Source: Candidatus Yanofskybacteria bacterium
GTDB lineage: Bacteria; Patescibacteriota; Minisyncoccia; 2-02-FULL-40-12; IGHO2-12-FULL-4
DNA: 64,000 nt
Direction: 5' to 3'
NCBI GenBank assembly: GCA_016185525.1
Contig: JACPNK010000006.1
Span: 22,728-86,727, forward strand
The notes beneath the pieces are model-generated. The model did not search any database, was not told the origin of the DNA, and saw only the letters and a program-made list of their open reading frames with translations. Numbering within the stretch: the stretch's first letter is position 1; each line of letters opens with the position of its first letter. The translations under genes were made by a program, and so were the position numbers. Below, in pieces: positions 7,668-31,298 of this stretch.

Positions 7668-10600
7668 ATGAATAACTTTACATCATTAAAACTAAAAATA
7701 GCCTCTCCAGAAGAGATTCTCGAGTGGTCTTACGGAGAAGTTACCAAGCCGGAAACGATAAACTACAGGACCCAAAAACCGGAAAGAGACGGCTTGTTTT
7801 CCGAAGCTATTTTCGGGCCGGTCAAAGATTTTGAATGCTATTGCGGAAAATACAAGAGAATAAGATATAAAGGCATAATTTGTGACCGTTGTGGAGTAGA
7901 AGTAACCAGATCAATCGTTAGGCGTGAAAGGATGGGCCATATCAGGCTTGCCAGTCCCGTTGCCCATATATGGTTTTTGAGAGGTGTGCCATCTAAAGTT
8001 GCCGTGGTTTTGGATGTCTCTTTGGTGGAACTTGAAAGAGTTATATATTTTGCCAGCTATATTGTGATGCGGGTGAACGAGGAGCTTAAGGCCGAAGCCA
8101 TGAAAAAGATTGAAAATGAGTTTCGTTCAAAAATCAAGAATGCCAAAGATGAAAACGAGGCAATTCGTCTGAAAGAGCAGAAAGACTATGAAAAGAACAA
8201 TCTACGCGCCATCAAGAAATACCAGATTCTTTCGGAGTTGGATTTTAGAGATTTATCTTTAAAATACGGCGAGGTTTTTGAGGCGGGCATCGGCGCCGAG
8301 GCCATCAAAAAACTTTTGGGTGAAATTGAACTCAACGACTTGGTGAAAGCTACGGATAACGAGCTTAAGGCAACCGACAACCCTAACATCAGAAAAAAAA
8401 TGATTCGCAGGCTCAAGCTTCTCAGGGGCATGATCAGAAATAATATCAGACCCGAGTGGATGATTTTGGATATTCTTCCCGTGATTCCGCCGGCTTTGCG
8501 TCCGATGGTTCAACTGGACGGCGGCAGGTTTGCTACAGCCGATTTAAACGATCTTTACCGCCGGGTTATCAATAGGAACAACCGTTTGAAACATTTATTG
8601 GAACTCCATGCTCCGGAAGTTATAACTAAAAACGAAAAAAGAATGCTGCAGGAAGCAGTGGATGCTTTGATTGATAACTCTATGCGCCGCGGACAAACCA
8701 TGATTTCCGCTTCAACCGGCCAAAAGAGAGCTCTGAAATCTTTGGCCGATATGTTAAAAGGCAAGACCGGGCGTTTCAGGCAGAATCTTTTGGGCAAGAG
8801 GGTAGACTACTCTGGCCGAAGCGTTATTGTCGTCGGACCGAACCTTGATATTGACCAATGCGGTTTGCCTAAGCATATGGCGCTTGAGCTTTTCAAGCCT
8901 TTCGTGGTGCATAAATTAATCAGCGCCGGTTTAGCTCACAATATCAAATCCGCTAACCGCTTGATTGACCAGCAAATTCCGGAAGTTTGGCAGGCCTTGG
9001 AAGAATCCATTAAAGACAAACTAGTTTTACTTAACAGGGCGCCGACTCTGCATCGTTTGAGCGTTCAGGCTTTCAGGCCAAGCTTGATTGAGGGCAAAGC
9101 TATTACAATTCCGGCTTTGCCGACCAGCGCTTTTAACGCTGATTTTGACGGTGACCAGATGGCGGTCCACTTGCCTTTGACAAACGAAGCACAAAAAGAA
9201 GCTAAAGACTTGATGCTTGCCAGCCACGGAATTCTCAAGCCCTCAACCGGAGAACCGGTTGCCGCGCCGTCAAAAGACGTGGTTTTCGGCTGTTTCTATC
9301 TTACTCATCCTGGTGACAATCTTTTGGGCGAAGGCAAAACGTTTTCTTCAGAAGAGGAAGCATTGCTTTCACACAATAATGGCTTTACCGATTTGAGGGC
9401 TAAAATAAAAATTAAAACAGATAAAAAAATAGATGCTAACGAGCTTTTGGAAAATGGATTTATTACGACTACTGTCGGCCGGATAATTTTTAACCGCGGT
9501 TTGCCTGAAGATTTTCGCTTTGTTAACAAAACTTTGACCAAGGGCCAGTTGAAGGCTCTTGAAGCCGAGCTTTTGGATGAACGGGGAGAAGAGGAAACGG
9601 TAAAGTTTTTGAATACCGCTAAAAATTTAGGTTTTCATTATGCCACTATTTCCGGCGTCTCTTTTGCGGTTGAAGATTTGCGCGCAGTTTCTGACAAGCA
9701 GTCGATGCTAGACGAAGCCGATCAGAAAATTGAAGAAGGCCGCGGCTTGTATGATCAGGGTCTGCTCACGGAATATGAAAGAAAGTCTAAGGCTATAGAA
9801 GTTTGGACCGATGTTAAATCTCGTTTGGAAAAAATGGTTAAACAAAATTTTAAAAATGACGATTCGGTCTTTATGTTGGTTGAGTCCGGCGCCAGAGGTT
9901 CTTGGGCGACGGTTAATCAGCTGGCCGGCATGAGGGGTTTATTTGCTAATCCGGCCGGAGAGTTGATTGAACTGCCGGTAAAAGGCTCTTTCAAAGAAGG
10001 CTTGAGTGTTTTGGAATATTTTCTTTCAACTCACGGCGCCAGAAAAGGTCTGGTTGACACCGCGTTAAACACCGCCCAAGCCGGTTATCTGACCAGGCGT
10101 TTGGTTGATGTTGCTCAAGACGTTGTGGTTAAAGAAAAAGACTGCAAAGACAAAGATGGCTATGTCATGTTAACTGAAGATGGGAAGCAGATAGGCGAAT
10201 CTCTGGGCAAGAGGATAAAAGGAAGAGTAATTCTGGAAGACGTTTTAGACAAGGACGGCGAGGTTGTCATAAAGAAAGGAACTCTTATCAGCAAGGACTT
10301 GGCGGCAAAGATTGACTCTCTCAACTTGGACAAGATAAGGATAAGGTCCATTATTGCTTGCAGAGCCAAAGACGGCATTTGTCAGTATTGCTACGGTTAC
10401 GATCTGTCAAAGAATCGGCTGGTTGAAGTTGGCGAGGCTGTGGGTATTGTAACCGCGCAGGCAATTGGTGAGCCGGGCACCCAGCTGACCATGAGAACTT
10501 TCCATACCGGAGGCGTGGCTGGCGGAGGCGATATTACCATGGGCTTGCCCAGAGTGGAAGAAATTTTTGAAGCCCGGACGCCTTCTGCCAAAGCTCTTGT

Positions 10601-18537: not shown

Positions 18538-19557
18538 TCAAATTTTTATTTCCACCACGTCGCCGTCTTGGACTATGTAATCTCGGCCGACAAGTTTCAA
18601 GGTGCCGTTTTCGCGTGCTTTGCCCCACGAGCCAGCCTCCACTAACTTTTGCCAATTAATAACTTCTGCTCTAATGAAAAGTTTTTCAAAGTCAGTATGA
18701 ATAGCCCGGGAAGCTTTGGGGATAGGTGTATTTTTGGGCGCGGTCCAGGCCCGGGTTTCGTCTTCCCCCGTGGTTAAGAAGGTGATTAAATCCAGAAGCT
18801 TATAACTTTTGGAAATCAGTTCATCTAAACCGGAGTGTTCCCGGAAGACTTCTGTGAGGTATAAATCTTTTTCTTCCGGAGAGGCTTCAGACAGCAGAAG
18901 TTCAAAATTAGCGGACAAGACGACATATTGTGATTCGCCCATGGCTTTGATTAGCTCCGGTTCCGGTTGCCAGCGGTTTTTAACCTGCTCTTCCGAAGCG
19001 TTTAAAACATATATCACTTTTTTTGAAGCGAGCAGTTCCAATTCCGGCAATCCTGCCTGACCGGCAGACAGGTCTTCATTCTTGTTTTTTTTGGCCTTTC
19101 TTTTTTCTATGGATTGCAAATCGGCCAATGCTAACTCTGTCTTGATTATTTCTATGTCATGAACCGGGTCAACTTTGCTGTGGACGTGAATTATATTCTT
19201 GTCTTCAAAAACTCTTACCACATGAGCGACTGCATCCACCTCTCTGATGTTGGCCAAAAACTTATTGCCCAAACCCTCGCCTTCAGCGGCGCCTTTGATT
19301 AGTCCGGCAATGTCTATGAACTCAATTGCTGTCGGCACTATTTTTTTTGAATGAGAAAGTCCGGCTAGTATTTTCAGTCTTTCATCCGGCACCTCAACTA
19401 CGCCTACATTGGGATCAATCGTCGTAAAGGGGTAGTTGGCAATGGCTATTTGTTTTCCTGCCCCGTGGCCGCCGTCAGGCGACTTTACGGGGTTAGTTAA
19501 GGCCTTAAAGAGGGTGGATTTACCTACATTAGGCAGGCCTACGATTCCGATTTGCAT
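18538..19557 (-). CDS. ychF: ribosome-binding ATPase YchF (Obg-like GTPase family)
   Basis: [22 protein letters not shown]1 motif; C-terminal TGS-like [13 protein letters not shown]. Confidence 0.85.
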
Positions 19558-19683
19558 ATGCGGTGAATATTAGCAAAAATCCAGTAGATACGCCAATTTT
19601 TTGAGCTTGACTTTTTGCTGAAAAGGTATATGATTAAGGTATAGTTAGGATAGTTCCTTTATTTACTACTTGCCCGCTTCGAC
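19541..19683. repeat. direct repeat DR-L (ychF start + promoter region), partner at 23915-24056
   Basis: About 143 bp, roughly 93% identical to 23915-24056; includes the first 17 nt of ychF. Confidence 0.8.
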
Positions 19684-19828
19684 AAGTCGAAGACGAGGCG
19701 AGCGAGCAGTCATAGCCATAAGTTTCTGATACAAATTGGAAGTTTATTGCTATGACTGCCATTCTGGTGGTCATCGCTGCCGCATAGTGCGGCCAAAACT
19801 GCCGGCATAGCGCCGGAAGGAGGAAGTT

Positions 19829-20422
19829 ATGCGTTGGAATCCAGTTGAACAAGTACAGGATGTCGTGAACAAGTTCGGGACCGAGGAGCGCGTCAAGCGT
19901 TTCCAGTCCGGCGAGCTCGTGCTCGTGGAACGGACGGACCCTCGTGCAGTCGCGATGGTCCTCAACTTCGAGCGGAAGGTCTCGGTGGCCAGCCGCCGGT
20001 TCGTCACCGGCGAGAGCTTCACCAAGAGCAATCCCAAGGTGAAGTTTGGCCACATTGACGAGAAGGTCGTCAAGCTTTTTGGCAAGAGCCAGGACGTGCC
20101 GGCCGGCGAGCTGGCCACACACACGCTCTTACTGCCTAAGCACGATCCCGAAATCATGGTCGCTCTTGGACCTCAGTCCAGGCGTTTCATCAAGCTGGGC
20201 CAGTTCTACCAGTTGATCGAAGCGCAGGGCCAGGGCCAGGAAGGCTCCCTTCTCGTCAACGGATGCGCGAACATTGCGTACATTCTTGACGAGAACGGCG
20301 CGCCTTGGGCGGTCAGCGCGTACTGGGGCCCGATCGATGGCGACTGGCGCATGTGCGTTAACTCGGTTGCCCGCCTGCACGCGTGGCTTGCCGGCAGCCG
20401 GGTTCTCTCGCAAGTCGGATAA
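19829..20422 (+). CDS. DGR target protein 1 (variable C-terminus, C-type-lectin/FGE-like fold presumed)
   Basis: GC-rich (~60%) ORF with GGAGG RBS; its last ~35 codons are VR1. Confidence 0.75.
   Translation: MRWNPVEQVQDVVNKFGTEERVKRFQSGELVLVERTDPRAVAMVLNFERKVSVASRRFVTGESFTKSNPKVKFGHIDEKVVKLFGKSQDVPAGELATHTLLLPKHDPEIMVALGPQSRRFIKLGQFYQLIEAQGQGQEGSLLVNGCANIAYILDENGAPWAVSAYWGPIDGDWRMCVNSVARLHAWLAGSRVLSQVG
20304..20410 (+). repeat. DGR variable region VR1
   Basis: 107 bp aligned with TR1 (20701-20807); nearly all mismatches fall where TR1 has A (AAC codons in TR become GGC/CGC/TGC etc.). Confidence 0.8.
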
Positions 20423-20427
20423 GAACT

Positions 20428-20482
20428 GGGTTCCTTGGGAACTTGGTTCTTGGGCCGGCAGTAGCTTCAACGCTGTTGCCGG
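20428..20482 (+). other. GC-rich hairpin downstream of VR1 (DGR cruciform/stem-loop)
   Basis: GGGCCGGCAGTAGCTTCAACGCTGTTGCCGGCTC inverted repeat. Confidence 0.5.
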
Positions 20483-20700
20483 CTCATTTTTATTTCTATA
20501 AAATACAACTTGGATATTAGGCGAATCTGCTGATCTCCAATTGGATATCAGCGGCCGAACTCTAAGCGCGCATTCAGATTGCTATCGGAGCTTAAAAACG
20601 AAGATACTTGGTGCGGAACACTATGTGAGTCAGCTCACGAATTCGATGCAGTCCCGAGAGTATTCAACGGACAGTGGTAATGGTGGTGTTTCGCACAGAG

Positions 20701-20807
20701 CTTGGGCGGTCAACGCGAACTGGAACCCGAACTATGGCGACTGGAACATGAACGTTAACTCGGTTGCCAACCTGAACGAATGGAATGCCGGCAACCAGGT
20801 TCTCTCG
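20701..20807 (+). repeat. DGR template region TR1
   Basis: Asn-codon (AAC) rich: NWNPNYGDWNMNVNSVANLNEWNAGNQ; downstream hairpin AAACTCC/GGAGTTT and a CCAGCCGCC motif. Confidence 0.8.
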
Positions 20808-20820
20808 AAATTCTCTTCGT

Positions 20821-21168
20821 TCAAAAACTCCTTTGCGGAGTTTTTGTTTGTTTTTGCCAGCCGCCGAGCATTTTGCCTATCTCATTCAGATGATTCGACA
20901 ATGTTACATATTTCTTTACATCAAGTATTTCTATTTCCCATGCAATCTGTAATATAAATTTCAACATATCAAATGAGTCCGAGGCCTTGGCAAGATAAAA
21001 TCCTTTTTGTTCACGGTTTTTATGAGCTGCAATAAATAAATGTTCCGTGGTTTCGATAAACAGGTTATCAATTTTTAGACCAATAGTATATCGATTGATT
21101 TTCTCTAATCTAATAAAATATTCATGCCAAACTTTGTAAACCACAATCAACTTTTGGATAATCGGCAA
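20821..21168 (-). CDS. avd: Avd-like accessory variability determinant (four-helix-bundle / 23S rRNA IVS protein family)
   Basis: 115 aa; ...KFILQIAWEIEILDVKKYVTLSNHLNEIGKMLGGWQK is the typical IVS/Avd C-terminus; immediately adjacent to TR1 and the RT. Confidence 0.65.
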   Translation of the reverse strand: MPIIQKLIVVYKVWHEYFIRLEKINRYTIGLKIDNLFIETTEHLFIAAHKNREQKGFYLAKASDSFDMLKFILQIAWEIEILDVKKYVTLSNHLNEIGKMLGGWQKQTKTPQRSF

Positions 21169-21177
21169 AGTAGCGCT

Positions 21178-21187
21178 GGGGGGGGGG
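21178..21187. repeat. G10 homopolymer tract in the avd/RT divergent intergenic region
   Basis: gctggggggggggcgtag. Confidence 0.9.
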
Positions 21188-21232
21188 CGTAGAAGGATTG
21201 AATTTGGTCATAGTTTTGATGAGGTTATTAGT

Positions 21233-22177
21233 TTGGAAAATTTACTGGAATCCTGGAAAGAGTTCCTGAAAGGCAAACGCAAGAGAAAGGATGTCCAGGA
21301 GTTTGGCCTTTTTCTGATGGATAATATTATAGGCCTGCACAACGATCTTGACAATCATACATATAACCACGGGCCATATCAAGCGTTTCGCATAAATGAT
21401 CCCAAACCGAGACAGATACACAAGTCATTGGTCCGTGACCGGTTGCTCCACCATGCTATTTATCGTCAACTCTATCCGTTTTTTGATCGAATGTTTACTG
21501 CCGACTCCTTCTCATGCCGACTTGGCAAGGGGACACACAAAGCATTAAACAGGTTCAGAAGTTTTGCATTCAAAGTCAGCAAAAACAACACCAGGACGTG
21601 TTGGATTTTGAAATGTGATATCAAGAAGTTCTTTGAGAATATTGACCACGAGGTTTTGCTTAGCATCTTAAAAGAATACATCCGTGACCGGAACACTATC
21701 TGGCTTTTAGAGAGAGTGATTTACAGCTTCTCATCCGCTCCAGGTAGGGGATTGCCTCTCGGCAATCTCACCTCGCAGTTGTTCGTGAATATCTATATGA
21801 ACGAATTTGATCAGTTTGTGAAGCACAATTTGAAGGCAAAATACTATATCAGATATGCCGATGACTTTGTGGTCTTGTTTCAAGACAAATCTTGGCTCGA
21901 AGAGATGCTTCCTAAAATGGGTGACTTTCTGGAAGAAAGATTAAAACTTGAACTTCATCCAGACAAGGTTTTTATCAAAACGTTTGCTTCGGGAGTTGAC
22001 TTCCTTGGCTGGGTTCACTTTCCAGATCACAGAGCATTGAGAACGACTACCAAGAAGCGGATGCTTAAAAGGATTAAGGCAAAACAGGATATTAGCACAA
22101 CCAAATCTTATTTGGGACTTATTAGTCATGGAAATGCTAAAAAACTAGAAAAAGAGATATTAAGGATTTCTGAATAA
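21233..22177 (+). CDS. DGR reverse transcriptase
   Basis: 314 aa; RT motifs including GLPLGNLTSQLF (DGR-specific IGxxxSQ) and YIRYADDFVVL (YADD). Confidence 0.85.
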   Translation: MENLLESWKEFLKGKRKRKDVQEFGLFLMDNIIGLHNDLDNHTYNHGPYQAFRINDPKPRQIHKSLVRDRLLHHAIYRQLYPFFDRMFTADSFSCRLGKGTHKALNRFRSFAFKVSKNNTRTCWILKCDIKKFFENIDHEVLLSILKEYIRDRNTIWLLERVIYSFSSAPGRGLPLGNLTSQLFVNIYMNEFDQFVKHNLKAKYYIRYADDFVVLFQDKSWLEEMLPKMGDFLEERLKLELHPDKVFIKTFASGVDFLGWVHFPDHRALRTTTKKRMLKRIKAKQDISTTKSYLGLISHGNAKKLEKEILRISE

Positions 22178-22182
22178 TTTCT

Positions 22183-22272
22183 GTAGAGGGGGAAGTTTTA
22201 TTGTAAACTGAAACGGGATGTATTTGAGCCGGTTATCGTCAAATCCATGTCGCATTGCGTTCCGACTATACC
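22183..22272 (+). repeat. about 90 bp junction element, copy 1 (copies at 23811-23914 and 25389-25507)
   Basis: Shared GGAGGAAGTTTTAYTGTRAAC...TGTCGYATTGCGTTC blocks. Confidence 0.6.
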
Positions 22273-22406
22273 AATCTGGAGCATTTTGGTAATTTATCAT
22301 TTTAAACCCACCTTCTCAAGTTAACTTGCTATCATCAGGATCTTATGATTTAATTCCGATATAATTACTAATGTAAATTTAGTGAGTGTTTGGTAAATTA
22401 TTATTT

Positions 22407-22976
22407 ATGGAAAACGGCTATTTTTATTCACGAAGAGAAAACGTCAACGATTTGTACTATGATGCTATGGAATTGCTTCATGGAAACATTGAGGAGGCCA
22501 GGAAAGCTGAAAAATTATTAGCAAAAGCTCTTGGCCTGGATCCTAATAATATCCAAACGCATATTGGTTTTGCGCATTTGTACGGACGTCTTAAAAATAA
22601 AAAGAAAACAGAAGAACATATCAAGAAGGCCTACGAAGAAACAACTAAGAAATTTCCGGTTTGGCCCAAGCGTATGGAGTGGGGCGACATGGATAATCGG
22701 GCGTATATGAGAGCGATACAATACCGCGCTGATCTTTACGCTGATGATGGAGAAAAAGAAAAAGCCGTAAGTTTATATCGGCTGCTTCTTAAGTTGAATC
22801 CCAACGATAACCAGGGTGCTAGGTACACCATCTCTGGTGTCTATGCCGGAATAAGCGGAAAAGAAATTAATAAAATGTTTGACGAGTGCAACAGGCGACA
22901 AAATTGGGCTAGGCTTGAAGACCTGATCAAAAAACAAAATGCCAAACACAAGTTTTGGAAAGAACCAAGATTTTGA
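22407..22976 (+). CDS. TPR repeat protein
   Basis: TPR-like helical repeats (AEKLLAKALGLDPNN..., LYRLLLKLNPNDNQG); table ORF starts at a GTG at 22386. Confidence 0.5.
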   Translation: MENGYFYSRRENVNDLYYDAMELLHGNIEEARKAEKLLAKALGLDPNNIQTHIGFAHLYGRLKNKKKTEEHIKKAYEETTKKFPVWPKRMEWGDMDNRAYMRAIQYRADLYADDGEKEKAVSLYRLLLKLNPNDNQGARYTISGVYAGISGKEINKMFDECNRRQNWARLEDLIKKQNAKHKFWKEPRF

Positions 22977-23019
22977 GAAGATTGTTGATATCAAATTTCC
23001 TACATGGTATATAATAAAA

Positions 23020-23358
23020 ATGAGTACAATTCATGAGTACCTCATTGATACAGAAGATTATAGAGGCAAGCGGGTAATCTTTACTGAAGCTAAGCGTCTA
23101 GAAAAGTCAGCCCAGCATGCCGAATTAAACAATAAGCAGTTTCTAAAAAATATTGAGCCGACCATTAAAGATCCCGAAGAGGTCTGGCCAGACTATAGTG
23201 ACAAAAATAGAAAAGCATGTTATTATAAGAAATACTCAGCCACTACTTATGTTAAGGTGGTAATTTGGATATATGACAGTCCTTGTCGAGTAGTTACTGC
23301 TTATGAAACTGATAAAATTAAGGAAATGCTATATCCAGAATTAAATCGTCTTAAATAA
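23020..23358 (+). CDS. hypothetical protein
   Basis: ORF; internal ATG with A-rich upstream region, since the table start at 22939 overlaps the previous gene. Confidence 0.4.
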   Translation: MSTIHEYLIDTEDYRGKRVIFTEAKRLEKSAQHAELNNKQFLKNIEPTIKDPEEVWPDYSDKNRKACYYKKYSATTYVKVVIWIYDSPCRVVTAYETDKIKEMLYPELNRLK

Positions 23359-23368
23359 TTATAAAAAC

Positions 23369-23791
23369 ATGACAACTAACATTAAACAAAATAGAGAGTT
23401 TATTGACCTAGCCTCAAATCTCCAAGGATTTATTCAGAAAAACGGTTGGATTAGTAGATACGATCTTGAAAGTGATGCCTTTTCAATTACCACCCCGAAT
23501 TTATCGGAGGACGCTAGAATTCGCTATTTCGATGATGAGATAGCTCTTTATGTTACGAATGACAATAAGATTGAGGGTATCTTTATGGAATACTTCAAGA
23601 GTAATTTTGTCCAACACCATAAAGACCTCAAGCCTGTTTTAGAAAATATAGAAAAAGAACAAGGAAAGAAAGAAATCGGTCTTGTCCAATTAGGTAAAGA
23701 TAAAATACAAAAACTCGCTCCTGACATACAGGAAGCCCTCCAGGTGCTTCTGGCAGAGAAGCTTAATCTAGGATTAAACCAAGCTCGATAG
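23369..23791 (+). CDS. hypothetical protein
   Basis: 140 aa ORF. Confidence 0.45.
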   Translation: MTTNIKQNREFIDLASNLQGFIQKNGWISRYDLESDAFSITTPNLSEDARIRYFDDEIALYVTNDNKIEGIFMEYFKSNFVQHHKDLKPVLENIEKEQGKKEIGLVQLGKDKIQKLAPDIQEALQVLLAEKLNLGLNQAR

Positions 23792-23810
23792 TAGCCTGCT
23801 CAAATAATTG

Positions 23811-23914
23811 CTAAGGATTACCAAATAACTTCTGGACAGGAGGTAATTTTTTTTGAAACTAAAAGGTATCAGTTTTACCGGCATATTACCATAGCTGTAT
23901 CGCATTGCGTTCAT
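23811..23914 (+). repeat. about 90 bp junction element, copy 2
   Basis: CTAAGGATTACCAAATAACTT...TCGCATTGCGTTCAT. Confidence 0.6.
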
Positions 23915-24056
23915 ACGATTCCTATTTGCATATGCGGTGAATATTAGCAAAAATCCAGTAGATACACCAGTTTTTGAACTTGACTTTTTGCTGAAAAGGT
24001 ATATAACTAAAGTATAGTTAGTATAGTTCCTTTATTTACTACTTGCCCGCTTCGAC
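23915..24056. repeat. direct repeat DR-R (remnant ychF promoter + first 6 codons MQIGIV then stop)
   Basis: Matches 19541-19683. Confidence 0.8.
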
Positions 24057-24112
24057 TCCTACTACCGTCTCGTTCGTCCTCGCAGGTAGCAAAAACCTGA
24101 GACTCTTGGTTC

Positions 24113-24361
24113 TTGGACCCCGTTCAGTTTACTGAACGGGGTCGTTTTCTTTGTAGCTTTTCAACTTTAAGCACTTTTACAGGCCTTGCCTGTCAGAATA
24201 CAATGAAATACCTCGCAAACCTGTGCAATCAGACGACCAATTCAAGAAAGTTCTGGCCCAAAACAATGCTTTACCACAGCAATGACCCTGAAGGCGTTGA
24301 AATAACGAGAGCCTTTACGACAAGTTTTGAAAAAGAAACTCTGCCTAAATATAGTGAGTAA
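24113..24361 (+). CDS. hypothetical protein (weak)
   Basis: 82 aa ORF only. Confidence 0.25.
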   Translation: MDPVQFTERGRFLCSFSTLSTFTGLACQNTMKYLANLCNQTTNSRKFWPKTMLYHSNDPEGVEITRAFTTSFEKETLPKYSE

Positions 24362-24543
24362 CTGGGTAGGGTAATCTGCTCTAATCAAAATAAAACCAAC
24401 CAACAAAAAAAACACCCCTCCGAGCCATATGTTGATATCTAATTTTCTATATGGTATATAATGAAGTTAAGGAAAATTTATAGTATAGAGCGTTGGTTAT
24501 AGGTAATGTTGACTTTTCTAGTTTACTAATTTATAATATTGCT

Positions 24544-25388
24544 ATGGTAAAAAATGTCAAAAATACTCTTCATATCGGTATTAAACAACTCCTAAAATTA
24601 GATGATAAGTTGGCGAAGCTGCGTAAGCCTACATCTATTGAGGAGGAGTCTTTGCATGCCCAACACAGATTTGAAGCGACATATTACTCAAACAAGCTTG
24701 AGGGGAATAAACTAACGAAAGAAGAGGCCAGAAAAGCTATTCTATTTAAGTAATTAATGAAACGTCCACTTAATAAACGTGAGTCAGACATATTAGAAGA
24801 AGAGGCCACTGGGAAGCCTCTTCTTCTTTACATAGACTTATCAAACGCTTAGTTCGTAAAAGACTTCCTTTAGAGCTGAGGTTTATTAAAACTGCACACA
24901 AAACTATTTTTGATATTGCTAAACAACCAGAAATCGGAGGCGTGTATCGAAACGACAACAGTCCAGAGTTAAAAAGAATAGATGGAACTACTCTGCCAAT
25001 GACAGATTGGCCCTTAATATCTAACGCAATGGCAGAACTTGATTCAGAACTTAGAGAAAAAACTAAAAATCTTGTGCATCCGAAAACTGAGCAAGGATAT
25101 TCTGAATTGATAATGCTAGCAACTAGACTTTCTCATAAACTGGTCTGTATACACCCCTTTAGAAATGGGAATGGAAGAGCGTCTAGATTATTATTAAATG
25201 CTATTCTTTTAAGAGCGGGCTTATCAGAAATTGCCATTAAAAAATCAAAACCAACATATCTCCGTGCCATGAGACAAGCTGATGATGGTGACTTTTCTCT
25301 TCTAGAGAACCTTGTTGTCAACGGGTTGGTCGAAACTAAAAAAATAAATTACTCAAGTATCCATTTGTCTTACCCATCAGGTCGCTAG
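24544..25388 (+). pseudogene. fic: Fic family protein, disrupted (in-frame TAA at 24754 plus a frameshift before 24850)
   Basis: N-terminal part has SNKLEGNKLTKEEA; C-terminal part has IHPFRNGNGRASR (HPFx[DE]GNGR). The two parts lie in different frames; promoter TTGACT-17-TATAAT at 24509-24537. Confidence 0.7.
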
Positions 25389-25507
25389 CTAAGGATTACC
25401 AAATAACTTTTGAGCAGGAGGAAGTTTTACTGTGAAACGGAATGGCATGAATTTAACTGATGAGCCGCTTGAGCTATGTCGTATTGCGTTCATACAATTC
25501 CGATTTT
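25389..25507 (+). repeat. about 90 bp junction element, copy 3
   Basis: Starts CTAAGGATTACCAAATAACTT like copy 2; ends GTCGTATTGCGTTCATACAATTCCGATTT, resembling the ychF 5' end. Confidence 0.6.
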
Positions 25508-25670
25508 TAACATGTTCAGATTGTAGCAGAAAACTATGGAAAACCAAGAAAATAAAATTTAAAAACCGCCGTTACGGCGGGTCAAAAGCTTAGTCGCTCG
25601 AGTCATAATTTTGATTAAGCACCGCTTGTCAGCTTTTTACATTTTAGCGGAACAGGTTTAACATAAGAGA

Positions 25671-26477
25671 GTGCAAAAGCCATGGTACACGATAGAGGAA
25701 AAACACAAAAATAAGAAGCTGATTGTTTTTGATTTAGACGGTACGCTGACCGAGAGCAAAAAGGAGATAGACCAAGAGATGGCCTTGCTTTTGGCTAAAC
25801 TGCTTGAAAAAAAAGAAGTTGCCGTGGTTGGCGGCGGAAAATATGAGTTGTTTCAGAGTCAACTTTTGGCGAGGCTGAAAGTGCCGGAATCCTCACTGAA
25901 AAAACTTTTTATATTTCCAACTTCAGCCTCGTCCTTTTACAGTTATGTTAGGGGTTGGAAAAAAGTATATTCCAAAGAACTTTCAGAGGAAACACGGGCC
26001 AGAATTAAGAAGGCTTTTGAAGAAGTTTTCAAGGAAGTAAACTATAAACATCCCGAAAAAACTTATGGAGAGGTTATTGAAGACAGGGGTTCACAGGTTA
26101 CATTTTCCGTTTTTGGCCAGGACTTAGTTAAGGTTTTGGGCAAAAAAGGAGTTGAAATGAAAAAAGAATGGCGGGACAAAAATACTAGACTCAAATTAAG
26201 GCTCGCAAAGATGCTTCAAAAAAAACTGCCCGATTTGGAAGTCCGCGCGGCGGGCTATACTTCGATTGATGTAACTCAAAAGGGGATAGACAAGGCTTAT
26301 GGTTTAAGGCAAATAAAAAAGCATCTCGGAATTAAATTCAGCGAGATGCTGTTTGTAGGCGATGCTTTGTTTAAGGGCGGCAACGACTACGCTGCTCTTA
26401 AAACCGGCGTAGAATGTGTCGCGGTAAAGGGGCCGGAAGAAGCCAAGAAGATTATCAAATTCCTATTTTTTCTTTGA
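25671..26477 (+). CDS. HAD-IIB family hydrolase, phosphomannomutase-like
   Basis: LIVFDLDGTLTE motif I; KGIDKAYGL; FVGDALFKGGNDY. Confidence 0.65.
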   Translation: MQKPWYTIEEKHKNKKLIVFDLDGTLTESKKEIDQEMALLLAKLLEKKEVAVVGGGKYELFQSQLLARLKVPESSLKKLFIFPTSASSFYSYVRGWKKVYSKELSEETRARIKKAFEEVFKEVNYKHPEKTYGEVIEDRGSQVTFSVFGQDLVKVLGKKGVEMKKEWRDKNTRLKLRLAKMLQKKLPDLEVRAAGYTSIDVTQKGIDKAYGLRQIKKHLGIKFSEMLFVGDALFKGGNDYAALKTGVECVAVKGPEEAKKIIKFLFFL

Positions 26478-27435
26478 TTTCTTTCAAGGTACTGCTTGCA
26501 ATTACTCTAGCTTTTTCTTCTGACTCTGTCAATACCTTATCAACATAGTCCATGTTGTTCTTGAGTTCACTGTATTTCTTTTGAAAAGGCTTTAGAAAAT
26601 CTACAACGACTTCAGCTAAGTCATTTTTAAAGTCCGCGTAAGTTTTGCCTTCATAGTCTTTTTCAATTTCTTCTATCGTTCTGCCGGATAGTAACTGGTA
26701 AATTGTGAGTAAATTGGAAATAGCCGGTTTTTTGTCCTCGTCATATTTTATTTCTTTGCCCGAATCAGTTACCGCCTTTTTTATTTTTTCTCTGACAACC
26801 TCCGGATTATCAGATAAGGCAATGCCCTCGTCGCCGGTTTTGGACATTTTTTTAGCCGGATCCTGCAGGGACATAACTCGGGCGCCTTCAGTAAGGTGTG
26901 GCTTGACCGTCTGGAAAGTTTCGCCGAAAAGATGGTTGAACTTTCTGGCAATTTCGTTTGTCAGGTCAATGTGGGGGAGCTGGTCGTCGCCGACTGGCAC
27001 AAGGTTTGATTTGTAAATTAAAATATCAGCGGCCATGAGCACCGGGTAGTCCAAAATTCCCATATGGGTGTACTTGCCCTGCGTCTGTTCTATTTTTTCC
27101 TTGTAAGTGGGTAAGCGGTCCAGCCAGCTTACCGGAGTTATTGTGTTAAAAATCCAAGCAAGCTCGGTATGCTGTGGAACTTTTGATTGGCGGATTAGTA
27201 TGGATTTTTCCGGATCAACGCCGGCGGCCATATAGTCCAAAACCGCTTCCATAACTTGCTGATGATAGGTTTTGGGGTCAAAAGGCGTGGTGATGCCGTG
27301 GTAGTCCACAACAGCAAAAACAGTCCTTTCCGTGTCCGGACTTTTTTGCAGTTCTACCCAATTTTTTATGGCGCCCAGATAGTTGCCTAGATGCAATTTA
27401 CCGGAAGGCCGTATACCGGAAAAAATTTTATTCAT
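26455..27435 (-). CDS. trpS: tryptophan--tRNA ligase
   Basis: IFSGIRPSGKLHLGNYLGAI (HIGH region) and KMSKT. Confidence 0.9.
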   Translation of the reverse strand: MNKIFSGIRPSGKLHLGNYLGAIKNWVELQKSPDTERTVFAVVDYHGITTPFDPKTYHQQVMEAVLDYMAAGVDPEKSILIRQSKVPQHTELAWIFNTITPVSWLDRLPTYKEKIEQTQGKYTHMGILDYPVLMAADILIYKSNLVPVGDDQLPHIDLTNEIARKFNHLFGETFQTVKPHLTEGARVMSLQDPAKKMSKTGDEGIALSDNPEVVREKIKKAVTDSGKEIKYDEDKKPAISNLLTIYQLLSGRTIEEIEKDYEGKTYADFKNDLAEVVVDFLKPFQKKYSELKNNMDYVDKVLTESEEKARVIASSTLKEIKEKIGI

Positions 27436-27510
27436 ACAACTAAGAATACAGCATTAAAAGTTTTTAGACAATTTTACTGCGACCTGCTATAATTATTATA
27501 ATGGAATTTA

Positions 27511-27606
27511 ACCAACCAACCAACCAACCAACCAACCAACCAACCAACCAACCAACCAACCAACCAACCAACCAACCAACCAACCAACCAACCAACCAAC
27601 CAACCT
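27511..27606. repeat. (CCAA)n tetranucleotide microsatellite, about 24 units
   Basis: Uninterrupted accaacc... run. Confidence 0.95.
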
Positions 27607-27881
27607 AAATTTTTAGAAGTTTGTTCGGTTCTACTATACAGATATACAGACCGTGATAAACGGTTTTTTTATTTTTCGGTTAACCAAAACCAGAATTGAT
27701 TTTTTAGTTCTCGTGACAATTTATATGAATTAGCATGACTTAAAACACCGAGATACGTTTGCAACGATTGTTCAAGAGTTTCAGTAGAAATAAGGTCTTG
27801 CTTTTGGCGGCTGGATAAAATCAACCCGCGATTGTTAAAGAAATATCCTCCAAGCGGAGGATATTTCTTGTAAGAGAGAAA

Positions 27882-27998
27882 GAAGTTCCGGGAGGCACCA
27901 ACGCCCACGTTGTTGTTGCGATTGCCGTTCCAGTTATTGATGTTGAGGCCGTTCTCGTCGAAGTTGCCGACACACGAAACGTTGTCAGCGTTGGCCGA
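27882..27998 (-). repeat. DGR template region TR2 (minus-strand sense)
   Basis: Sense strand encodes FFSANADNVSCVGNFDENGLNINNWNGNRNNNVGVGASRNF (AAC rich); 117 bp aligned with VR2. Confidence 0.75.
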
Positions 27999-28297
27999 AA
28001 AGAACGCATAATGCCCATCTCCATCTATGTCACCGGGGATTTAGGTTTACCACCCAAGCGGGCCTATATCCTATCTCCCCTGAATTTTATTCGGGAGCAT
28101 CTGCTTTTTACGGCAGAACCTCCACTAAAGACAAGCAAGAAGTTCAATCTCAACTTTTTATCGCGCACTACCGTAATCCGTAAACGACGGTATTCCGGCG
28201 ATTCCTCAAAAGAAGAGGTGTCCGCGAGGTGAAGCCGTAACCGCATCTGCATTAGCAGACAAAGAAATTGTATCAAGTATTATTATAAAAACAAAAC

Positions 28298-28338
28298 GAG
28301 CCTTCGGCGCTGCGAAAAAAAATTCGCGCCGAAGGCTC
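28298..28338. terminator. strong hairpin just downstream of VR2 / target 2 stop
   Basis: GAGCCTTCGGCGC-loop-GCGCCGAAGGCTC (13 bp stem). Confidence 0.6.
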
Positions 28339-28355
28339 AAGCAAGGCTTCAAGGT

Positions 28356-29210
28356 TCAGAACTTCCGGGAGGCACCAACGCCCACGTTGCCGGCGCGACC
28401 GCCGTCCCAGCTATCGATGCGGAGGCCGCGCCCGTCGAAGCGGCCGACACACGAAACGTCGCCAGCGAAGGCCGAGTCGGTCTTCACTGTCCGCTCCGCG
28501 CAGGCTGCCCATTTGGATCCGTTGGGACGAACACCAGTCTTACGGAAGACGAGGATGTCCTTGGTCGTTTCCATTATCGTCGATGGCACTTCGTACTCGG
28601 GCGGAAGCATCGCCACCTGCTCTTCGGGCGTCTTGTTCGTCGAGTTAGGAACGATCTCCGTATGGAGCAGGTAATAGCGAAGCCGCATGGTCGCCACATC
28701 GGTGTGGGGCTGGCCTCCGTGCCAGGGGTTGCTGTTGAAGTAGAACTTCGGCTGGCCCGTTGCCGGATGCAACTGAAGCCACTTGGCCACCGTGAGAGGC
28801 GAACCGTTGATGGCGGTCAGGCCCAGGAATGCGAAGTGGCAGTCCTTCACCACCTTGCCGCAGAGCGGGCAGGTGGAATTGAGGATGTCCTCACCCCACG
28901 GGAACTTTCCGGCGTCGCGGATCTGCTTCTTCGTGAACTTGGCGTCGTAGTAGCTCATCCAGTCGGCAACATCGAAAATGTTGCGACCGAGAACCATACG
29001 AGCCATGCGCGATTCGATAGAACCGATGAGGCCTTTTCGCAACATCGCCTGAGCGATGCGGCGAGTGTACTCGCTGTCGGTGCGGAAGAGATCGAAGAGA
29101 TCGCGGGGATTGCCTCCCTCACTGGCAATCGCTTTCTCAAGCGACGCCACGCTTTCCTCGAACTCACCCTTGGTCATGGTCCAGAGACCGCTTGTCTTGG
29201 CTTGTGTCAT
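28356..29210 (-). CDS. DGR target protein 2 (variable C-terminus)
   Basis: GC-rich ORF; ATG at 29210 with GGAG RBS (the longer ORF to 29279 is unlikely); C-terminus DSAFAGDVSCVGRFDGRGLRIDSWDGGRAGNVGVGASRKF is VR2. Confidence 0.7.
   Translation of the reverse strand: MTQAKTSGLWTMTKGEFEESVASLEKAIASEGGNPRDLFDLFRTDSEYTRRIAQAMLRKGLIGSIESRMARMVLGRNIFDVADWMSYYDAKFTKKQIRDAGKFPWGEDILNSTCPLCGKVVKDCHFAFLGLTAINGSPLTVAKWLQLHPATGQPKFYFNSNPWHGGQPHTDVATMRLRYYLLHTEIVPNSTNKTPEEQVAMLPPEYEVPSTIMETTKDILVFRKTGVRPNGSKWAACAERTVKTDSAFAGDVSCVGRFDGRGLRIDSWDGGRAGNVGVGASRKF
28359..28475 (-). repeat. DGR variable region VR2
   Basis: Differs from TR2 almost only at positions that are A in the TR2 sense strand (T on plus). 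Confidence 0.75.
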
Positions 29211-29480
29211 AACACATCTCCTTTTTTTGTCGGTTTGCTCTCCATGTCCTTTAGGGACTCTTGAGAGCGGATGCCCCATGCCGTGGGGCTGCGGTCCTGC
29301 CTACCGGCAGGCAGGCTTGTCTCAGAAGTTGAGACAAGTATGCTGGAAACCATTGTTTAGGCATCCAAAATGCTTGTCTCAAGTAGAACCTTATTGTAAG
29401 GAACTACATCATAATTATATCATCTTGTAAGTGTGCCTGTCAATAGGGTATTTTACTCGGGACTAGGGAATGGACTGGGT

Positions 29481-31298
29481 TTACACTTCTATGACTACCG
29501 GCAAGACCATGGGTCTTTTTTCTGTTTTTTGGAAGAGAAACTTGCCGATTTCTTCGCGGAGATTGTCTTTAAGATAAGCGGTGTCAACCCTGCCGACAGC
29601 GCTGGTTTTTTCAACAACAAATCTGGCCTTCTTTCTGACTTGAGCAAGGAGTTCTTTGTTGTCTTTCAAATAAATAAAACCACGGGAGATGATATCCGGA
29701 CTGGTCAGTACTCGGCCGGTTTTTGTATCTATGAGAATGACTATGACAAACATACCGTCTTCGGCTAGAACTTGTCTGTCTCTCAAGACTACGTTGCCGA
29801 CATCGCCGATGCCTAAACCGTCGACTAGTATCGGATTGCTGGCGACCGTTCTTTTGTCAAACCACCACCTGATCTTATCTGAAATCGGGTTTTCTAAATC
29901 GGGGTTGCTTAGATGAATAACAGAGCCGTTGTCGGCAATAATGATGTTTTCTTCGGGAATTCCTTTGGTCTGGCCTATTTCTGAATGGCTGACCATCATT
30001 GAATATTGTCCATGGATTGGCATGAGGATTTTTGGGTTCATAACTTCCATCATGTGTCCCAAGTCTTCTCTCTGAGCATGTCCGCCGGCGTGTATGTCCA
30101 TCATTTGGTAGTGGTAAACTTTCATGCCTGCTCTGTAAAACATATCTTTTAAATTTTGCACGGCTCTTTCATTGCCCGGCACGGTGGAAGAGGAAAAAAT
30201 CAAAGAGTCTTTTTTAATCAGACGAATAAAACGGTGTTCATGGTTGGCAATACGCATCAAAGCGGCGTTGCTTTGTCCCTGCGCGCCGGTGGCGATGACT
30301 GTAATTTTAGACCGAGGATAATCATTTACCTGATTGGATGTAATCTGGGTGTCTTTTTGCATTTTTATATAACCCAGCTCCTTGGCTATTTCAACGTTTG
30401 ACTTCATGCTGTAGCCTTCAAAAACAACCTTCCGGCCGTATTTTTCCGAAAGCCAGACTATTTGCTGGATACGGTCAACCATGGAAGCAAAAGTTCCAAA
30501 GACAATCATCTGCTTTGATTCTCTGAAAATCAGCTCCATGTTGTCCATGATAGTTTTTTCTGAAATTGAGTGGCCTTCTCTTTCTGCGCCGGTTGAGTCG
30601 GCCATTAAGACTGATACGCCTCTTCTGCCGAGTTCTCTTAGGTGGTCAAGGTTTATGGGTTGGCCGTTGGTGGGCGAATGGTCAAACTTAAAATCAGCCG
30701 TATGAACTATTGTTGCTTTGGGTGTTTTGATGAATAAAGCAAGGTCGTCAGGTATGTTGTGGTTAACATGAAAAAATTCAACTTCAAAATAGTCTCCGAA
30801 TTTTGCGGTGTCATCGGCTTTTACGATATGGAATTTTAGTTTTGGCAAATGGGGGAATTCTTCATGTCTTTTGGCGACGATGCCTCTGGTCAAAGCGCCT
30901 CCGTAAATATCCGGATTGCCAAGTTTTTCCAGCAAGTAGGGCAGAGCGCCGATATGGTCCATGTGGCCGTGAGTTAAAATCAAGCCTCTTATATTCCCTC
31001 TTTTTCTTTCCAGATATTCGGTGTTGGGGATAATGTAATCTATCCCCAAGTGGTCTTCGTCGGGAAACTTAAAACCGGCATCAATTACCAATATGTCGTC
31101 TTTGTATTCCAGGAGACACATATTTTTTCCTATCTCGCCGAGTCCGCCCAGGGGAATAATTTTAAGAGTTTCTTCCCCGTGGTCGGAGGTCATTTTTGTC
31201 GGTCCTAAAGCTGGGGGAGTTCTCCTCGCGGGGCGCGGATTGGGAGATCTTTTCCAAGAAGATCTTCTTGGTTTTTTAGCTGTAGTTGTTTCTATCAT
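29481..31298 (-). CDS. rnj: ribonuclease J (beta-CASP metallo-beta-lactamase)
   Basis: LKIIPLGGLGEIGKNM; HGHMDHIGALPYL; beta-CASP region. Confidence 0.85.
   Translation of the reverse strand: MIETTTAKKPRRSSWKRSPNPRPARRTPPALGPTKMTSDHGEETLKIIPLGGLGEIGKNMCLLEYKDDILVIDAGFKFPDEDHLGIDYIIPNTEYLERKRGNIRGLILTHGHMDHIGALPYLLEKLGNPDIYGGALTRGIVAKRHEEFPHLPKLKFHIVKADDTAKFGDYFEVEFFHVNHNIPDDLALFIKTPKATIVHTADFKFDHSPTNGQPINLDHLRELGRRGVSVLMADSTGAEREGHSISEKTIMDNMELIFRESKQMIVFGTFASMVDRIQQIVWLSEKYGRKVVFEGYSMKSNVEIAKELGYIKMQKDTQITSNQVNDYPRSKITVIATGAQGQSNAALMRIANHEHRFIRLIKKDSLIFSSSTVPGNERAVQNLKDMFYRAGMKVYHYQMMDIHAGGHAQREDLGHMMEVMNPKILMPIHGQYSMMVSHSEIGQTKGIPEENIIIADNGSVIHLSNPDLENPISDKIRWWFDKRTVASNPILVDGLGIGDVGNVVLRDRQVLAEDGMFVIVILIDTKTGRVLTSPDIISRGFIYLKDNKELLAQVRKKARFVVEKTSAVGRVDTAYLKDNLREEIGKFLFQKTEKRPMVLPVVIEV

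Follow-up and report, generated by a model that had tools for sequence, protein, structure and literature searches.

The diversity-generating retroelements (DGRs) of the Patescibacteria, or candidate phyla radiation (CPR; DGR clade 2 of Roux et al. 2021, PMC8144416), are the described systems closest to the locus reported here, with which they share the host lineage, a reverse transcriptase (RT) with an RVT_1 domain accompanied by bAvd, and adenine-specific mismatches between a template repeat (TR) and a variable repeat (VR). The targets of CPR DGRs contain no recognisable Pfam domain (PMC8144416), and a Pfam search of the targets studied here gave the same result. Our analysis concerns a stretch of 64 kb (the window) from a 183-kb contig of an incomplete metagenome-assembled genome (MAG; HYX21) of Candidatus Yanofskybacteria (Patescibacteria/CPR), in which an intact cassette, DGR1, and a second TR/VR pair, TR2/VR2 at locus 2, are both present. 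Cassettes of the DGR1/RT1 lineage are termed type 1, and those of the locus-2 lineage type 2. As compared with the known CPR DGRs, locus 2 has neither RT nor Avd and is a remnant rather than a working member of the group.

Locus 2 adds a further case to a type of event already on record, the partial loss of a DGR. In Treponema denticola SP32, one DGR type was gained and another partly lost (Nimkulrat et al. 2016, PMC4891356). As in the window, an intact DGR stands there beside leftovers of a different DGR, including a leftover target with A-type differences. By comparison, the T. denticola leftovers contain no TR, whereas locus 2 keeps a complete TR module and both end-points of the deletion. 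Thiohalocapsa PB-PSB1 carries several DGRs with incomplete or disrupted loci, some without an intact RT (Dore et al. 2024, PMC10907252), for which, as here, historical diversity, action in trans or intact population variants are in question (PMC10907252). In the Thiohalocapsa trans case the VR matched the TR of another locus, whereas TR2 is unrelated to TR1, and trans action would need a heterologous RT working on a foreign TR RNA. The multi-TR DGRs listed in surveys (PMC11661182, PMC6642488; Stenotrophomonas SKA14) likewise have two TR/VR pairs within reach of one intact RT; the survey calls come without evidence on origin, whereas the second TR here can be traced to its own, deleted cassette. 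The arrangement is distinct from that of Bordetella phage BPP-1, the mechanistic paradigm, in which avd lies upstream on the TR strand and an essential structured spacer (Sp) lies 3' of TR, with priming at A56 (Handa et al. 2018, PMC6182149). In the window, avd is antisense and downstream of TR, the structured RNA is 5' of TR, and the TR unit finishes with a terminator-like hairpin.

Remnants of a second cassette beside TR2

TR2 and VR2 were recovered by a repeat search as a direct repeat of 117/118 nt (27881-27998 and 28358-28475) with 82% identity. They differ at 21 of 117 positions, of which 20 are adenines of TR2 read on the minus strand, replaced in VR2 by G (14 positions), C (4) or T (2); the sole non-A difference, C/G, lies 6 nt from the 3' end. 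The concentration of mismatches at adenines has a hypergeometric p = 8e-11, calculated over an interval slightly wider than 27882-27998. TR2 translates as SANADNVSCVGNFDENGLNINNWNGNRNNNVGVGASRNF, with 11 AAC and 2 AAT codons. VR2 ends target gene 2, whose annotated start (29210) lies within an open reading frame (ORF) spanning 28356-29279 and whose C-terminal domain is predicted to be C-type-lectin/FGE-like. A first-pass annotation of this DNA had reported that both repeats are on the minus strand with mismatches almost only at TR2 adenines, that TR2 coding is Asn-rich, and that the TR1 and TR2 sequences differ. All of these observations hold, TR1 and TR2 being unrelated (z = 0.9), and so does the identification of a genuine second DGR-type TR/VR pair, based on the A-specific mismatches, the Asn-rich TR and the position of VR2 in a gene with a predicted C-type-lectin-like fold. 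Two further components expected of a DGR are largely missing, as 44 codons are left of the cassette RT, and 10 codons plus the stop of the accessory Avd.

No intact RT or avd ORF was found near TR2 by ORF inspection and tblastn, in agreement with the first-pass annotation, and tblastn with RT1 found no second RT in the 64-kb window beyond the 44-codon remnant. The best non-self match of RT1 (27809-27705; 37% identity, E 0.014, RT1 residues 282-309) lies on the strand of TR2, just 3' of the repeat. The RT remnant shares 82-83% nucleotide identity with the RT 3' ends of the orthologous loci L001, L007 and L010; its block SLQxYLGVLSHANxYKL...NQFWFW is intact, and the 44 codons contain neither a stop nor a frameshift. 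On the opposite strand, the avd remnant aligns with the avd 3' ends of L001, L004, L010 and L041 (ending in GGWIRSTRDR and the stop). Both remnants occupy their expected places and strands. A longer avd pseudogene spanning 27606-27880, for which the DNA alignment to the avd1 region was weak, was dropped, as the orthologues show that only 33 nt of avd are left.

Homologues of target 2 numbered 292 at E <= 0.001; among the 120 of these listed, identity to target 2 is 48-100%, and the source-named ones come mostly from Patescibacteria MAGs. Relatives with 54-87% identity are found in MAGs named as Yanofsky-, Kuenen-, Pace-, Lipton- and Falkowbacteria. The contig of L001/L016 is syntenic with the window over the genes for SBP_bac_5, PGI, RNase J and the target, after which it encodes an antisense 116-aa bAvd and then a 349-aa RT. 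The avd and RT layout of L001 is also present in the Kuenenbacteria loci L004/L005 and in L007, L010, L018-L026, L029/30, L035, L036, L041, L042 and L045, and the type-2 order in the orthologues is target-leader-TR-hairpin-avd(antisense)-RT. In blastn, the minus strand of the window at 27400-29400 is colinear with L001 over 5164-6757 at 83.6% identity and resumes at 7992-8132 at 81%, and the same break in colinearity is seen against L007 and L010. The two flanks have the A-run at the junction in common, an AAA(A) microhomology, and the missing 1,234 bp comprise avd codons 1 to ~106 and RT codons 1 to ~305. The junction is identical in two independent Logan assemblies. Because these assemblies (SRR12113428 and SRR12113422), from different runs, match the window at 100% identity over 27576-31002 and 27576-30057, respectively, the locus-2 arrangement, including the deletion, is real and no assembly artefact.

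Against the type-2 orthologues L001, L007, L010 and L041, the window is 79-86% identical in the target, 86-94% in the spacer and leader, and 92-97% in the TR; TR2 itself matches the TR of L041 at 97% identity and the TRs of L001, L007 and L010 at 92%, and each of these four TRs belongs to an intact cassette. By comparison, RT1 shares 48% identity with the type-2 RT, and Avd1 29% with the type-2 Avd. Because the lost proteins are this distant from RT1 and Avd1, the two cassettes are judged to be separate lineages, and TR2, on this comparison, belonged to another RT and is not a cognate template of RT1. Two first-pass ideas do not survive these results. TR2 was not RT-less by origin, since the RT and avd remnants abut the deletion junction and the orthologues carry the missing 1,234 bp; a second DGR RT does lie near TR2, as the remnant at 27669-27803. 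Nor does a single RT serve two cognate TRs, as the remnants and the junction show that TR2 had its own RT and avd and as RT1 is only distantly related to the lost RT. We consider it probable that TR2/VR2 is the rest of a second, independent DGR whose RT and avd were lost in a 1.2-kb deletion. The features of both loci are collected in Table 1.

Table 1. Positions of DGR-related features in the 64-kb window
Feature	Position	Strand	Description
RT remnant, type-2 DGR RT	27669..27803	-	last 44 codons + stop
Deletion junction	27802..27805	.	3-4 nt A-run; 1,234 bp missing vs L001 (6758-7991), L007, L010
avd remnant	27806..27838	+	GGWIKSTRDC and stop: last 10 codons + stop; aligns to intact avd 3' ends
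TR2-proximal hairpin	27840..27867	-	GAAATATCCTCC-GCTT-GGAGGATATTTC; 12-bp stem, GCTT loop, U-rich tail
TR2, template repeat	27882..27998	-	Asn-codon rich
Leader RNA, locus 2	28005..28162	-	three-way junction, 38 base pairs, intact; directly 5' of TR2
GC-rich hairpin	28298..28338	-	GAGCCTTCGGCGC ... GCGCCGAAGGCTC, then T-run; directly 3' of VR2; from sequence reading
VR2	28359..28475	-	final 39 codons of target gene 2; 82% identity to TR2
Target gene 2	28356..29210	-	284 aa; NCBI HYX21_02970; ORF open to 29279
Target gene 1	19829..20422	+	197 aa; ends in VR1
VR1	20304..20416	+	direct repeat with TR1
Leader RNA, DGR1	20590..20702	+	homologous, two shortened hairpins; ends at first TR1 bases
TR1	20701..20813	+	direct repeat with VR1
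TR1-proximal hairpin	20822..20846		AAAAACTCC-TTTGC-GGAGTTTTT; inside avd1 last codons
avd1	20821..21168	-	115 aa; Pfam bAvd PF22296, E 1e-12
RT1	21233..22177	+	314 aa, TTG start; Pfam RVT_1, E 4e-25

Identity to L041 varies along locus 2 (27669-28358). The leader, TR and TR-proximal flank are 93-97% identical to L041, and the RT remnant shows 72% identity to L041 versus 82-83% to L010, L007 and L001, which suggests a mosaic ancestry of locus 2 through recombination between related cassettes. In the type-2 cassettes, the start codons of the divergent avd and RT genes are 3 nt apart (L001 7072-7076; L010 7784-7788), and therefore each promoter must lie within the other gene. In cassettes of either type, avd occupies the strand opposite to that of the target, TR and RT.

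Leader RNA and hairpins around the two TRs

What the two loci really have in common is a structured leader RNA that abuts the 5' side of each TR. At locus 2, it is surrounded by a wider conserved spacer (27999-28262), and the type-2 VR-TR spacer is conserved as strongly as coding sequence. Across 10 type-2 loci, RNAalifold revealed compensatory changes in 18 of the 38 leader pairs, and the single-stranded motifs CGAAU..AU.CAG and GUG(A) are conserved. The covariance model R1, built from type-2 loci only, scores 180.5 bits at locus 2 with no broken pairs and 28.4 bits at the DGR1 leader (E~1e-5, filters off, 20 kb); in other type-1 loci it matches the equivalent place at 35 bits (L052), 25 bits (L054) and 16 bits (L058). 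Leaders were located at 6402-6555 in L001, 7210-7369 in L004, 3956-4068 in L052 and 1486-1601 in L054. When both cassette types are combined, 95.5% of cells are paired, compared with at most 50% in slid controls, and covariation is seen at 25 of 38 pairs, with the caveat that the combined alignment was itself fitted to R1. An Rfam 15 scan of 19400-29400 returned no relevant family for the leader. The TR2 RNA unit is probably still complete. The leader may correspond in function to the Bordetella spacer, which is placed on the other flank of the TR. A long-range pairing proposed by RNAalifold between the leader segment GAGAUUGAACUUCU and a pyrimidine tract at the TR 3' boundary was dropped as a claim; its pairs never vary, and its covariation support is nil.

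Downstream of the TRs, the first-pass annotation had described a hairpin within about 15 nt of each TR, followed by a shared motif, CCAGCCGCC. The hairpins are indeed present, beginning 15 nt past TR2 and 9 nt past TR1, and the former is accompanied by covariation. In nine type-2 loci, 95.6% of the cells of the TR2-proximal hairpin are paired versus at most 69% in slid controls, with compensatory changes at three pairs (10 cells), such as that from AUAUCC/GGAUAU to ACACCC/GGGUGU. At locus 1, the terminator scan classed the counterpart hairpin as an intrinsic terminator. At locus 2, the promoter/terminator scan, with its loop and T-run criteria, called neither hairpin, and covariation was used instead. 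We regard the TR-proximal hairpin, situated where the TR unit and avd converge, as a putative terminator of the TR transcript that perhaps acts in both directions. The GC-rich hairpin directly 3' of VR2 is kept in L001 and other orthologues and occupies the expected place of a VR-flanking hairpin and target-gene terminator, roles that it may well serve; its counterpart after VR1 was scored as terminator-like.

The motif CCAGCCGCC also occurs after both TRs as reported (27806-27814 on the minus strand and 20857-20865 on the plus strand), with further copies at 13763 and 19989, giving 4 observed versus 0.36 expected. Its reading as a spacer signal, by comparison, fails, as the motif is the reverse complement of the Gly-Gly-Trp codons at the Avd C terminus. 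In DGR1, where avd1 is antisense to and convergent with TR1, the last avd1 codons (ending in MLGGWQKQTKTPQRSF and the stop) hold both the TR1-proximal hairpin (20822-20846) and the motif. The 9-mer reads CCACCCGCC, CCAGCCCCC, CCATCCTCC or CCAACCGCC in type-2 relatives and CCAGCCACC or CCAACCACC in type-1 relatives, and all variants in the relatives of both cassette types are confined to third codon positions. Because only synonymous third positions vary, CCAGCCGCC is, judging from these codons, conserved through protein-coding constraint on avd and not as an RNA or DNA signal, and its identical copies in this genome are a coincidence of synonymous codon choice.

The claimed likeness of the TR-downstream sequences is marginally above that of shuffled sequences, with z = 2.2 (p~0.03) over 150 nt and z = 3.2 (p~0.008) over the 76 nt to the junction. 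This much of the claim stands, and the 76-nt part is explained by the avd tail, which forms the best local alignment within those 76 nt. The spacer elements common to the loci come from two sources, a terminator-like hairpin and the antisense Avd Gly-Gly-Trp codons. As to recognition elements for RT and Avd that both TRs could have in common, the downstream likeness is avd-derived, and the upstream leader is homologous but scores 28 versus 180 bits.

Age of the deletion and alternative explanations

VR2 shares derived substitutions specific to TR2 at sites that are not A-informative (ATC, AAT and GTGGGCGTTGGTGCC). Because VR2 carries these bases, homing persisted in the window lineage after its split from the sampled relatives. 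The ratio of nonsynonymous to synonymous substitution rates (dN/dS) of the RT remnant is 0.06-0.11 against L001, L007 and L010 (37 alignable codons), and that of intact RTs among themselves is 0.01-0.08. Because the remnant thus resembles intact genes in dN/dS, nearly all of its divergence would have accrued under purifying selection, and we infer that the deletion is evolutionarily recent. A recent deletion would therefore explain the A-only pattern of TR2/VR2 without a trans-acting RT.

We propose that an ancestor carried two complete DGRs of different lineages with one layout, comprising a target with a 3' VR, a terminator hairpin, the leader RNA, the TR, a hairpin, avd on the opposite strand and RT. 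DGR2, at its ancestral position by RNase J, lost 1,234 bp across a short A-run, leaving the target gene, VR2, leader, TR2 and TR-proximal hairpin untouched. The adenine differences between TR2 and VR2 would have been written before the loss by the cognate RT-Avd, since deleted, and the orphaned parts have gathered no non-A differences or disabling mutations. The pair is now most likely a frozen relic heading for the further decay seen in relatives. Decay of such cassettes is, as far as their sequences tell, recurrent and has reached independent stages in other genomes. Among the relatives with enough flanking sequence, about seven are decayed: L006 (2282-2961) has a 3'-truncated TR and neither avd nor RT, L027/L028 (L027 2916-3583) have the VR and leader fused to a 132-aa RT C terminus, and L013, L032, L037, L038 and L043 have the VR-bearing gene alone. 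The window is the only decayed case in this survey that keeps the entire TR module.

Several observations weigh against a deleted cassette that has fallen silent. The deletion spared the leader, TR and hairpin and broke no base pair. TR2/VR2 contains no internal non-A mismatch and is cleaner in this respect than TR1/VR1, a pattern that continued use would equally produce. The leader is homologous between the cassettes, so RT1-Avd1 might recognise TR2 RNA. In addition, the inspection for RTs covered 64 kb of the 183-kb contig of an incomplete MAG, and we infer, rather than observe, that TR2/VR2 is inactive today. At consensus level, VR2 does not vary between the window and the two Logan assemblies, and VR1 of the intact DGR1 is equally invariant (window and five Logan assemblies), so that the consensus cannot discriminate.

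These points bear most directly on a secondary one-RT/two-template arrangement, in which the orphan leader-TR2-hairpin unit would still be transcribed and RT1-Avd1 would, after the loss of RT2 and avd2, recognise the shared three-way-junction leader and diversify VR2 in trans, so that two targets are served from two templates and selection maintains the TR2 module. We regard this as unlikely, yet as the alternative with the most in its favour. Although built from type-2 leaders, R1 scores 28-35 bits at the type-1 leader (E 1e-5 to 2e-6), its matches end exactly at the TR start in four type-1 loci, and covariation extends across both types; however, the type-1 leader has neither of the two hairpin extensions, and its 28 bits stand against 180. 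An intact leader, TR and hairpin, with a TR2/VR2 pair free of internal non-A differences and the survival of the whole TR module in only one of about seven decayed relatives, would fit selection on the module, but the young age of the deletion makes trans activity needless for the same pattern. There are precedents in the DGRs with at least two TRs listed in surveys (PMC11661182, PMC6642488) and in the trans use of DGR components argued for Thiohalocapsa (PMC10907252). Against these, Bordetella bRT-Avd acts specifically on its own RNA and depends on ~140 nt 3' of the TR (PMC6182149), whereas 76 ancestral nt are left here, and RT1 and Avd1 share 48% and 29% identity, respectively, with the lost proteins.

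A cognate type-2 RT might instead persist elsewhere in the genome, or in a co-existing intact population variant, and serve TR2. This we consider quite improbable. The extent of the inspected sequence and the consensus nature of MAGs leave room for it, and long reads from Thiohalocapsa showed intact variants of seemingly disrupted DGR loci (PMC10907252), but the deletion is present in all three assemblies, tblastn found no second RT in the window, and the best 120 type-2 RT homologues (at least 61% identity) include no named match from the HYX21 MAG, a weak negative as most matches are nameless. Finally, a chance or recombinational duplication of a gene 3' end without any DGR activity would account for the bare existence of the repeat and nothing more. 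It is refuted by the A-bias, the orthologous cassettes and the colinear alignment; the A-specific mismatches (p~1e-10), a TR rich in Asn codons, intact DGR cassettes at the orthologous position and a target with a predicted C-type-lectin-like fold make it scarcely credible.

DGR1, sequence context and implications

RT1 is the only intact DGR RT in the window, with YADD and LGNLTSQ motifs in its translation. At DGR1, 19 of 21 TR1/VR1 mismatches within the 113-nt repeat, and 19 of 24 across a 116-nt span, fall at TR1 adenines, and one internal mismatch is T to G. The closest relatives of RT1 (70-81% identity) share the DGR1 cassette layout, and their cassettes lie between the genes for RNase III and ribosomal protein S16 in most fetched loci; the neighbourhood in the window differs. 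The RT ATG of L056/L057 is missing in the window and in L052/L055, and, reading from the sequence, the RT1 start must be TTG at 21233 or a non-canonical codon. A G10 homopolymer (21178-21187) occupies part of the 64 nt that separate the divergent starts of avd1 and RT1, and every type-1 relative examined (L052, L054, L056, L057 and L058) has a G-tract in its avd-RT gap, of G9-G11, with C8G10 in L054.

DGR1 is further flanked by direct repeats of 144 bp (19540-19683 and 23914-24056; 95% identical), which bracket a 4.37-kb segment containing the entire DGR1 and three small ORFs (22386-23791). Within each repeat are the start codon of the GTPase gene (18538-19557) and the sequence upstream of it. 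This arrangement suggests that DGR1 came in through an insertion, or a recombination, that duplicated the target site. In addition, an element of ~130 nt occurs in three diverged copies (22161-22287, 23812-23937 and 25390-25516; 61-74% identical), the first of which begins in the final RT1 codons; the 3' parts of the copies are similar to the 5' end of the GTPase gene (...GCATTGCGTTC.TAC.ATTCC.ATTT...).

Both target genes (19829-20422 and 28356-29279) form GC-rich islands, with a GC content of 0.51-0.56 in the composition bins 20001-21000 and 28001-29000, compared with ~0.40-0.45 for the genome. These islands, together with the relatives of target 2 at 54-87% identity across different CPR lineages, point to horizontal spread of the cassettes. 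Just beyond the RT remnant, a tetranucleotide microsatellite, (AACC) in ~24 units (27510-27605), precedes the trpS start (27435, minus strand) by 75-170 nt. Both Logan contigs terminate within this tract, which could be a candidate slipped-strand or phase-variable tract.

Locus 2 offers a well-resolved snapshot of DGR decay, in which both end-points, the microhomology and the intact orthologues are visible, and the related genomes display later stages with a truncated TR, a lost TR or a VR only. It counsels caution in DGR surveys, since a locus called 'multi-TR' or 'RT-less' can turn out to be a young remnant, and a short shared motif to be antisense coding sequence. The leader RNA, supported by covariation in two CPR cassette lineages and without an Rfam match, is a candidate element for recognition or priming; it flanks the TR on the side opposite to that of the Bordetella spacer. 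The genome furthermore offers a natural setting in which to ask if a DGR RT can use a foreign template. Should RT1 prove to act on TR2, this would be a natural instance of DGR template swapping, and the 5' leader would be a portable recognition element of CPR DGRs, as compared with the 3' spacer in BPP-1.

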